Shown here: positions 46,668 through 47,705 of the stretch, in pieces
How positions within the stretch are numbered: position 1 is the first letter of the stretch
How the letters are laid out: each line of letters begins with the position of its first letter
NCBI GenBank assembly: GCA_947488865.1
Contig: CANLCB010000003.1
Location: forward strand, 1 to 51,314
Source: Deltaproteobacteria bacterium
GTDB taxonomy: Bacteria; Bdellovibrionota_C; UBA2361; OMII01
Length of the DNA stretch: 51,314 nt
Direction of reading: 5' to 3'
Program-made: the position numbers and the translations under genes
Notes under the pieces: model-generated
Seen by the model: only the letters and a program-made list of their open reading frames with translations
Databases searched by the model: none
Told to the model about the DNA's origin: nothing

Positions 46668-47705
46668 TTACCGAAGCACTACATCTTTAAGCTCATCGAG
46701 CTTGTCGAGCACCTGCCCCGAACCGATTACTACCGCCGACAAAGGATCCTCAACGACTCGCGTTTGAATCCCCAGCTCCGCCTCTATTCGCTTGTCGAGG
46801 TTCTTGAGCATCGAGCCACCACCTACCATGGTGATGCCCCGATCCACGATATCACCGGACAGCTCCGGCGGACACTTCTCGAGAGCCTTCCGAACTACTT
46901 CCACGATTTGGTTGATAGGCTCGTTAAGCGCCTCATACACCTCAACCTCCGAGATAACGATCGATTTGGGAACGCCGTGAATAAGATCTCGACCTTTCGC
47001 CTCCACATATTCGGGATCCTCTGGCGGCATAGCGTTTCCGATCGCGATCTTGAGCTGCTCGGCGGTGCGCTCTCCGATCATCACGTTGTGGCGGCGGCGA
47101 ATGTAGTTGGCGATCGCCTCATCCATTTTATCGCCACCCACTCGAACAGACTGGGAGTACACAATTCCTTTGAGTGAGATAACTCCGATTTCAGTTGTGC
47201 CACCACCAATCGCGAGAATCATATTGCCTGTTGGCTCAACTATCGGAAGACCAGCGCCAATCGCCGCGGCCATCGGCTCTCCGATGAGATACACTTCTCT
47301 CGCGCCCGCCAACTCGGCCGATTCGCGCACAGCCCGTCGCTCGACTTCGGTGATGCCATGAGGAACACAGATGATAACTCGAGGACGCACAAGAGCGCGA
47401 CGACGATGCACCTTACGAATGAGAATACGAAGCATCTCTTCGGTCATCTCAAAGTCGGCGATGACGCCGTCTTTCATAGGACGAATCGCGGTGATGGATT
47501 CAGGCGTCCGGCCCAACATCTCTTTCGCCTCGGAGCCGACAGCTAAAACTTTTCGCCGACCGCCAAGACCCCCCTTCTCCACGGCGACAACGGACGGCTC
47601 GTTGCACACAACTCCTCGCCCCTTTTGATAGATTAAGGTATTCGCGGTGCCGAGATCGATCGCAAGGTCGTTAGAGAAGAATCCAAGAAGGGAATCTAAA
47701 ATCAT
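46668..47705 (-). CDS. mreB: Actin-like rod shape-determining protein MreB (Ala at the phosphate-2 Asp)
   Basis: [38 protein letters not shown] in place of DIGGGTTE. Confidence 0.97.

Follow-up and report, generated by a model that had tools for sequence, protein, structure and literature searches.

Natural Alanine at the Phosphate-2 Aspartate of an Operon-Encoded MreB in a Small Freshwater Bacterial Clade

Introduction

To our knowledge, the role of ATP hydrolysis in MreB is still debated, and it has been probed almost only with engineered mutants altered at D165/D158 and E136. The 51,314-nucleotide stretch of DNA analyzed here (the window) contains an mreB gene whose codon at the position of the phosphate-2 aspartate specifies alanine. 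Is this an error or a sign of decay, or is it an inherited feature of a working MreB, and if the latter, what might it do to the nucleotide cycle? A preliminary description of the window had noted the alanine, called the replaced aspartate near-invariant, and suggested an elongasome built on a slow-hydrolysing or static MreB. Below we examine the gene and its neighbors, its relatives, the other MreBs in the same genomes, and the frequency of such replacements elsewhere, and we then weigh the possible explanations against published work on equivalent mutants.

Results

The mreB gene, its active-site codons and its operon

The features on which the argument depends are as follows (window coordinates).

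46668..47705, minus strand: mreB, 345 amino acids, heads the operon (MreB profile matches and 4CZE alignment)
47655..47657, minus strand: codon 17, GAT, the phosphate-1 Asp, unchanged
47280..47282, minus strand: codon 142, GGA, Gly in LIGEP; Glu in 28 of 28 other orthologues
47277..47279, minus strand: codon 143, GAG, the catalytic Glu, unchanged
47211..47213, minus strand: codon 165, GCG, Ala at the phosphate-2 Asp position (E. coli D165, Caulobacter D162)
47190..47198, minus strand: codons 170-172, the T-T-E of the E...T-X-[D/E] hydrolysis motif, unchanged
47184..47186, minus strand: codon 174, GGA, Gly in the phosphate-2 hairpin; Ala in 28 of 28 other orthologues
45693..46583, minus strand: mreC (PF04085, 151.9 bits)
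45174..45689, minus strand: mreD (TIGR03426, 32.2 bits, just below the cut-off of 34.85; a weak match plus operon position)
43296..45170, minus strand: mrdA, PBP2 (TIGR03423, 663.5 bits)
42151..43299, minus strand: rodA (TIGR02210, 401.3 bits)

Judged by its sequence, the window protein is an MreB in every respect except the phosphate-2 Asp. It matches NF010539 with 506.5 bits (cut-off 293) and TIGR00904 with 499.4 bits (cut-off 365.75), it is about 60% identical to MreBs of solved structure, and Caulobacter MreB (4CZE) aligns with it over residues 10-341 (E = 1.3e-124). That alignment pairs A165 with the Asp of DIGGGTTE and G142 with the Asp of IDEP, and shows the catalytic Glu to be kept. 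The plus strand at 47211-47213 reads cgc, which gives the GCG of codon 165, and the phosphate-2 motif D-x-G-G-G-T-T-[DE] accordingly reads A-I-G-G-G-T-T-E, with its Gly and Thr residues present and its Asp replaced. The phosphate-1 motif D-L-G-T-(A/S)-N is present as AIDLGTANT with D17, and the hydrolysis motif E...T-X-[D/E], which is found in 95.8% of MreBs (PMC9597168), is present as E143 with T170-T171-E172. Profile matches, phosphate-1 motif, catalytic motif and operon context all place the protein in the MreB family, and only the phosphate-2 Asp departs from it. These readings bear out the preliminary description as to Ala at position 165 and as to IGEP at 142 next to an unchanged E143 and phosphate-1 DLGT. 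It missed a third change, A174G (47184-47186), at a position where all 28 other orthologues examined have Ala.

The gene order mreB-mreC-mreD-mrdA-rodA is complete and all five genes lie on the minus strand, so that this MreB is encoded with mreCD and PBP2/RodA; the intact operon noted in the preliminary description is thus upheld by profile matches, that of mreD being weak (32.2 bits against a cut-off of 34.85). In the closest relative, G023 (below), mreC or PBP2 likewise comes next after mreB. Within 2.5 kb upstream of mreB are a bactofilin gene (PF04519; 49057-49527, minus strand) and a further penicillin-binding transpeptidase gene (49963-51312, plus strand, with an open 3' end), which flank rplS (48500-48943). 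Metatranscriptome run X20 contained one 193-base contig identical to 46668-46857 and none over codon 165, and it supplied no evidence of transcription.

Inheritance of the alanine

The orthologue set comprised 29 loci from 40 related genomes. Only the closest of them, from G023 (85% identity), shares the window's codons, GGA for 142 and GCG for 165; the remaining 28 all encode Glu and Asp there. A motif scan of the genus (35 species genomes, 66 matches) found GCG at codon 165 in three, namely G000 (the window's own genome), G023 and G078 (the same genome as G041, reached via locus L047), and GAT or GAC in the remaining 63. All three of these species carry E142G, D165A and A174G together. At the protein level, A165 is present in all seven members of the query's own 90% cluster, and in a second 90% cluster of 21 members it occurs together with G142 in 14 of the 14 that cover the site among the 15 listed, the fifteenth being a 90-residue fragment that does not include it. 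Logan contigs X2, X4 and X6, from three independent studies, span codons 142 and 165 with no difference listed at 47211-47213 or 47280-47282, an agreement that rests on assembled contigs rather than raw reads. Since the same residues are shared by three species, by members of both clusters, which come from many assemblies, and by contigs of three studies, A165 is not a sequencing or assembly error, as the preliminary description had argued from the codon itself. In 19 runs (16 studies listed), 50% or more of the gene's sampled words were present, and all of these runs are lake, river or other freshwater metagenomes. The closest relatives carry the depositor labels Bdellovibrionota, "delta proteobacterium" or Oligoflexia.

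A maximum-likelihood tree of 51 orthologue sequences joins the Ala165 sequences in a monophyletic group (support 100/100) whose stem measures 0.22 changes per site. Of the changes on this stem, K123R, E142G, D165A and A174G affect sites at which the other 28 orthologues do not vary. D165A, E142G and A174G all go toward smaller, uncharged residues, and there is no new carboxylate among the 12 clade-specific residues. Comparison of G023 with G041 gave dN 0.030 and dS 0.93, a dN/dS of 0.033, from the single usable pair (most other pairs are saturated at silent sites); this low value indicates strong purifying selection on the gene since the change. To see whether fast evolution of the whole genome underlies the long MreB stem, we compared identities. 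Against the outgroup G009, MreBs of the clade reach 76-78%, compared with 81-82% for those of the D165 sisters. From G000, IMPDH identity is 88% to both clade members and also 88% to G010, and the PBP2 comparison gave 82% versus 74-76%. The acceleration of MreB in the clade is therefore modest and not dramatic, the genome-wide check being a rough look. We conclude that the E142G-D165A-A174G triad is an inherited, selected trait of a small freshwater clade.

A separate neighboring lineage, the cluster of P0010 (P0010 and P0142-P0145), has Asn165 in five of six members and keeps E142 and A174; the sixth, P0141, has Asp165 and is nested within the cluster. The Ala165 clade and this separate Asn165 lineage together imply that the Asp has been replaced twice in this group. 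We rejected D165N as a stepping stone to Ala, since the N165 cluster lies in another subgroup of the tree and retains E142 and A174.

Other MreBs in the same genomes

The preliminary description had asked how many mreB paralogues there are. Relatives have two to three MreBs each, and three is the number in most genomes of the genus, their identities to the query being about 70-85%, 52-57% and 45-49%. The middle one (the ~54% paralogue) is present in 18 of 24 genus relatives. G023 (91% complete) and G041/G078 (88% complete) have two MreBs only, the Ala165 orthologue and the ~45% paralogue, and the latter has canonical DLGTAN, E-E and DIGGGTTE in both. In the D165 sisters G010 and G014 the full set of three MreBs, with the ~54% paralogue, is present. 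In the window's own genome, a metagenome bin that is 70% complete, one MreB was seen. A further clade without the ~54% paralogue (G008, G016 and G020) keeps D165 and has a stem of 0.23, and no stems in the tree of operon MreBs are longer than those of the two clades without this paralogue (0.23 and 0.22).

RodZ_C (PF13464, one domain model) was not found in G000, G023, G041, G010 or G014. Its absence from A165 and D165 genomes alike leaves no RodZ contrast between them, and loss of RodZ was rejected as the background of A174G for this reason.

Position 165 in wider surveys

How unusual is the loss of this Asp? We scanned 185,579 species genomes for M-[IV]-x-[Ala/Gly/Val]-I-G-G-G-T-T-[D/E], a search that covers Ala, Gly and Val in one motif context and in which records of the window's own genome may be missing. 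It returned 34 loci; 33 of them are MreB homologues, in which the residue is Ala in 8, Gly in 14 and Val in 11. Grouping these 33 variants at ≥75% identity gave 7 groups of several species each and 17 singletons (~24 lineages), the former including a four-species Val group, an alpha-proteobacterial Ala pair and two Gly pairs; the singletons, which lie one base from GAY, are putative variants. An MreC domain is present in 13 of the 31 downstream open reading frames tested, and the variant is the sole MreB match in 15 of the 31 other Ala/Gly/Val genomes. At least seven multi-species lineages have each lost the phosphate-2 Asp on their own, and in several of them the variant is the sole MreB match and has mreC downstream. 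In a sample of the phylum (124 genomes, 208 motif matches), the only non-Asp residues among the 191 matches read were the three of the clade and one Thr paralogue, the latter (ACT, G135:C226:14624-14655) being the third MreB paralogue of a genome from a different family.

A diversity sample made up of the best 150 representatives of 50%-identity clusters, 149 of which cover the site, gave Asp 139, Asn 6, Ala 2, Glu 1 and Gln 1 at position 165 (n = 149), Glu or Asp 119 and Gly 2 at position 142, and Ala 131 and Gly 13 at position 174. With Asp in 139 of 149 representatives, this residue is strongly conserved, typical of the MreB family and not obligatory for it, and "near-invariant" must be softened accordingly, given that 10 of the 149 have something else. 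Loss of the phosphate-2 Asp is rare but recurrent. Among the 33 natural Ala/Gly/Val variants, Gly142 is confined to the A165 clade and one Trinickia paralogue (3 variants), and Gly174 is seen in 5 (3 of 24 lineages), a rate about equal to the background of 13 in 149. Ala165 and its association with G142, for which the preliminary description had proposed a check, are fixed within the clade; neither the 33-variant nor the 149-representative counts support a general covariation of position 165 with 142 or 174.

Several individual variants deserve mention in their own right. The Val group (L034, L057, L059 and L061, match at 2001-2032 in each) has Val at the phosphate-2 Asp as the sole MreB match of each genome; an MreC domain was not found in the next open reading frame of any of the four. 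Their depositor labels are Proteobacteria, Klebsiella MAG, Myxococcales and Deltaproteobacteria, and the label "Klebsiella" on a 3.5-Mb bin looks wrong. The alpha-proteobacterial pair, L044 (817-848) and L045 (2001-2032), comes from MAGs labelled Micavibrio aeruginosavorus and Dongiaceae; their MreBs are 81% identical, have Ala165 with E142 and A174 kept, and are the single MreB match in each genome, with mreC next in L045. Two Lachnospiraceae MreBs, those of L048 and L056, combine Val at the phosphate-2 Asp with Gln in place of the catalytic Glu (..VEQP..); mreC follows in both, and each was scored with one in-frame TGA in the genome search. Gln at this catalytic position is seen also in 21 of the 149 diverse representatives (P0146-P0295), and several of the Gln-bearing representatives are long or fused (420-1010 amino acids), some with two matched stretches.

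Discussion

Published properties of equivalent mutants

Published work describes the same Asp-to-Ala replacement, made by engineering, in several MreBs. In S. citri MreB5 the Mg2+ shell waters are held by Asp12, Asp156 and Glu134; the D156A protein has an ATPase of 0.08 versus 0.15 per min, and E134A and T161A nearly abolish activity (PMC9195046). The G. stearothermophilus D158A protein has 3-fold lower ATPase and normal polymers, and still binds ATP, with less thermal stabilization (bioRxiv 10.64898/2026.07.23.740262). With B. subtilis D158A, Pi release is markedly reduced, ATP affinity is lower and ADP binding is undetectable, and its filaments show wild-type-like growth, about 2x faster nucleotide exchange, faster disassembly on wash-out and little response to ADP (bioRxiv 10.64898/2026.07.24.740542); in vivo it is reported to move at the speed of the wild type (Garner 2011, cited in PMC3599482), and the cells have mild defects (PMC3599482). 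E. coli D165A/E/V are reported to be non-functional and not viable (Kruse 2003, cited in PMC3599482), so tolerance of Asp loss varies by species. The ATPase losses of 2-3-fold or more in the published Asp-to-Ala mutants of three MreBs make "slow-hydrolysing" a plausible expectation for the A165 protein, whereas "static" sits poorly with D158A filaments that are dynamic and of wild-type speed in these accounts.

Possible explanations

Residues, inheritance, selection, operon and paralogue content are matters of observation in what follows, and each biochemical property ascribed to the A165 protein is a prediction by analogy. The reading that we favor, with a probability of roughly 0.6, is that this is a functional operon MreB in which the triad became fixed on the clade stem and which has low nucleotide affinity and low turnover and is neither dead nor static. 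E142G, D165A and A174G would have arisen around the Mg-nucleotide site on that stem and would then have been kept by purifying selection. With the water-activating residues E143, T170 and E172 and the phosphate-1 Asp still in place, the Mg2+ water shell has lost only one of its three carboxylates. If the engineered Asp-to-Ala MreBs are a fair guide, the A165 protein should still bind ATP and polymerise on the membrane, would hydrolyse ATP a few-fold more slowly, and would probably bind ATP and ADP more loosely, with quicker nucleotide exchange. Two points count against this reading: E142G and A174G, fixed along with D165A, could bring the kinetics back to normal or shift them in ways that cannot be foreseen, and the same replacement, along with D165E and D165V, is reported to be inviable in E. 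coli (above).

The former of these points is the substance of an alternative in which E142G and A174G remodel the phosphate-2 hairpin and its neighboring strand so that Mg-ATP binding and hydrolysis are near normal and the triad is functionally neutral. All three species do carry the whole set of changes, each at a site where 28 of 28 other orthologues agree, purifying selection is still strong, and position 174 lies in the phosphate-2 region, where E. coli A174T, a suppressor of rodZ deletion, changes MreB behavior (PMC3599482). However, all of the changes are to smaller uncharged residues, with no replacement carboxylate, and the wider counts show no general coupling (G142 in 3 of 33 variants; G174 in 5 of 33, or 3 of 24 lineages, against 13 of 149), and we consider such compensation unlikely. 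A division of labor, in which the A165 protein would serve as a scaffold, building elongasome filaments or joining them by co-polymerisation, and the canonical ~45% paralogue would supply normal nucleotide cycling, seems less probable again. It would fit the presence in both G023 and G041 of the A165 orthologue beside a paralogue with DIGGGTTE and E-E, the lack in both of the ~54% paralogue that 18 of 24 relatives have (G010 and G014 among them), the longest stems (0.22 and 0.23) in the two clades lacking it, and the two essential MreBs with distinct roles of Bdellovibrio bacteriovorus (PMC6985089). Yet the other clade without the ~54% paralogue (G008, G016 and G020) retains D165, and the variant is the sole MreB match in 15 of 31 other Ala/Gly/Val genomes, so a canonical partner is no general requirement. 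That the alanine is a base-call or assembly error, or that it marks an MreB freed from selection, is so improbable that we set it aside: the bin is only 70% complete, but recurrence of the same residues in three species, two protein clusters and the contigs of three studies, the dN/dS of 0.033, the full-length reading frame and the complete operon all contradict an artefact or pseudogene.

More broadly, and only tentatively, the nucleotide cycle of MreB may be evolvable, and the triad may have yielded a weak-binding, fast-exchanging, ADP-insensitive polymer whose stability tracks the ATP level of the cell. If that were true, normal-rate ATP hydrolysis by MreB would be dispensable for rod growth in nature. 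The natural replacements of Asp by Ala (here), by Asn (in the neighboring lineage) and by Gly or Val (in other phyla), in lineages living with them under purifying selection, are ready-made proteins that, with their revertants, could serve to test the nucleotide cycle, and the lineages that carry them may show which of its steps the elongasome needs and which second-site changes make loss of the Asp tolerable.

Comparison with known systems

Our search of the literature on MreB mutants D165A/D158A/D156A, on MreB3 and on Bdellovibrio MreB1/MreB2 returned only engineered mutants and Spiroplasma MreB3, and no natural MreB lacking the Asp. Spiroplasma MreB3 is likewise a natural MreB with an altered nucleotide site that stands beside canonical paralogues (PMC9597168). 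The alteration is a different one, however: MreB3 has very slow Pi release and is without E...T-X-[D/E], having Asp, Lys and Ser/Thr there (same source), whereas the A165 MreB keeps E143, T170 and E172, does not show an MreB3-like loss of that motif, and loses instead the Asp of the Mg shell. MreB3 also comes from a wall-less bacterium, whereas the A165 mreB heads an mreCD-mrdA-rodA operon. Bdellovibrio bacteriovorus, with MreB1 and MreB2, resembles the present genus in having several paralogues, one of them encoded with mreCD; a kinship between the two is suggested by depositor labels. E. coli A174T alters the same position 174 as in the A165 clade, to Thr there and to Gly here.

The closest likeness is to the engineered mutants of the same residue, E. 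coli D165A/E/V, B. subtilis and G. stearothermophilus D158A and S. citri MreB5 D156A, with which the clade shares the change from Asp to Ala in an otherwise canonical MreB; that the sites are equivalent follows from the alignment with Caulobacter MreB and from the literature. These mutants differ among hosts, being reported as inviable in E. coli and as causing mild defects in B. subtilis. The A165 clade differs from all of them in that its alanine is natural, is found in at least three species, is under purifying selection and is accompanied by E142G and A174G. It is not a new kind of system; it is the natural counterpart of a classic engineered mutant, and the clade is one among several lineages in which this Asp is gone.
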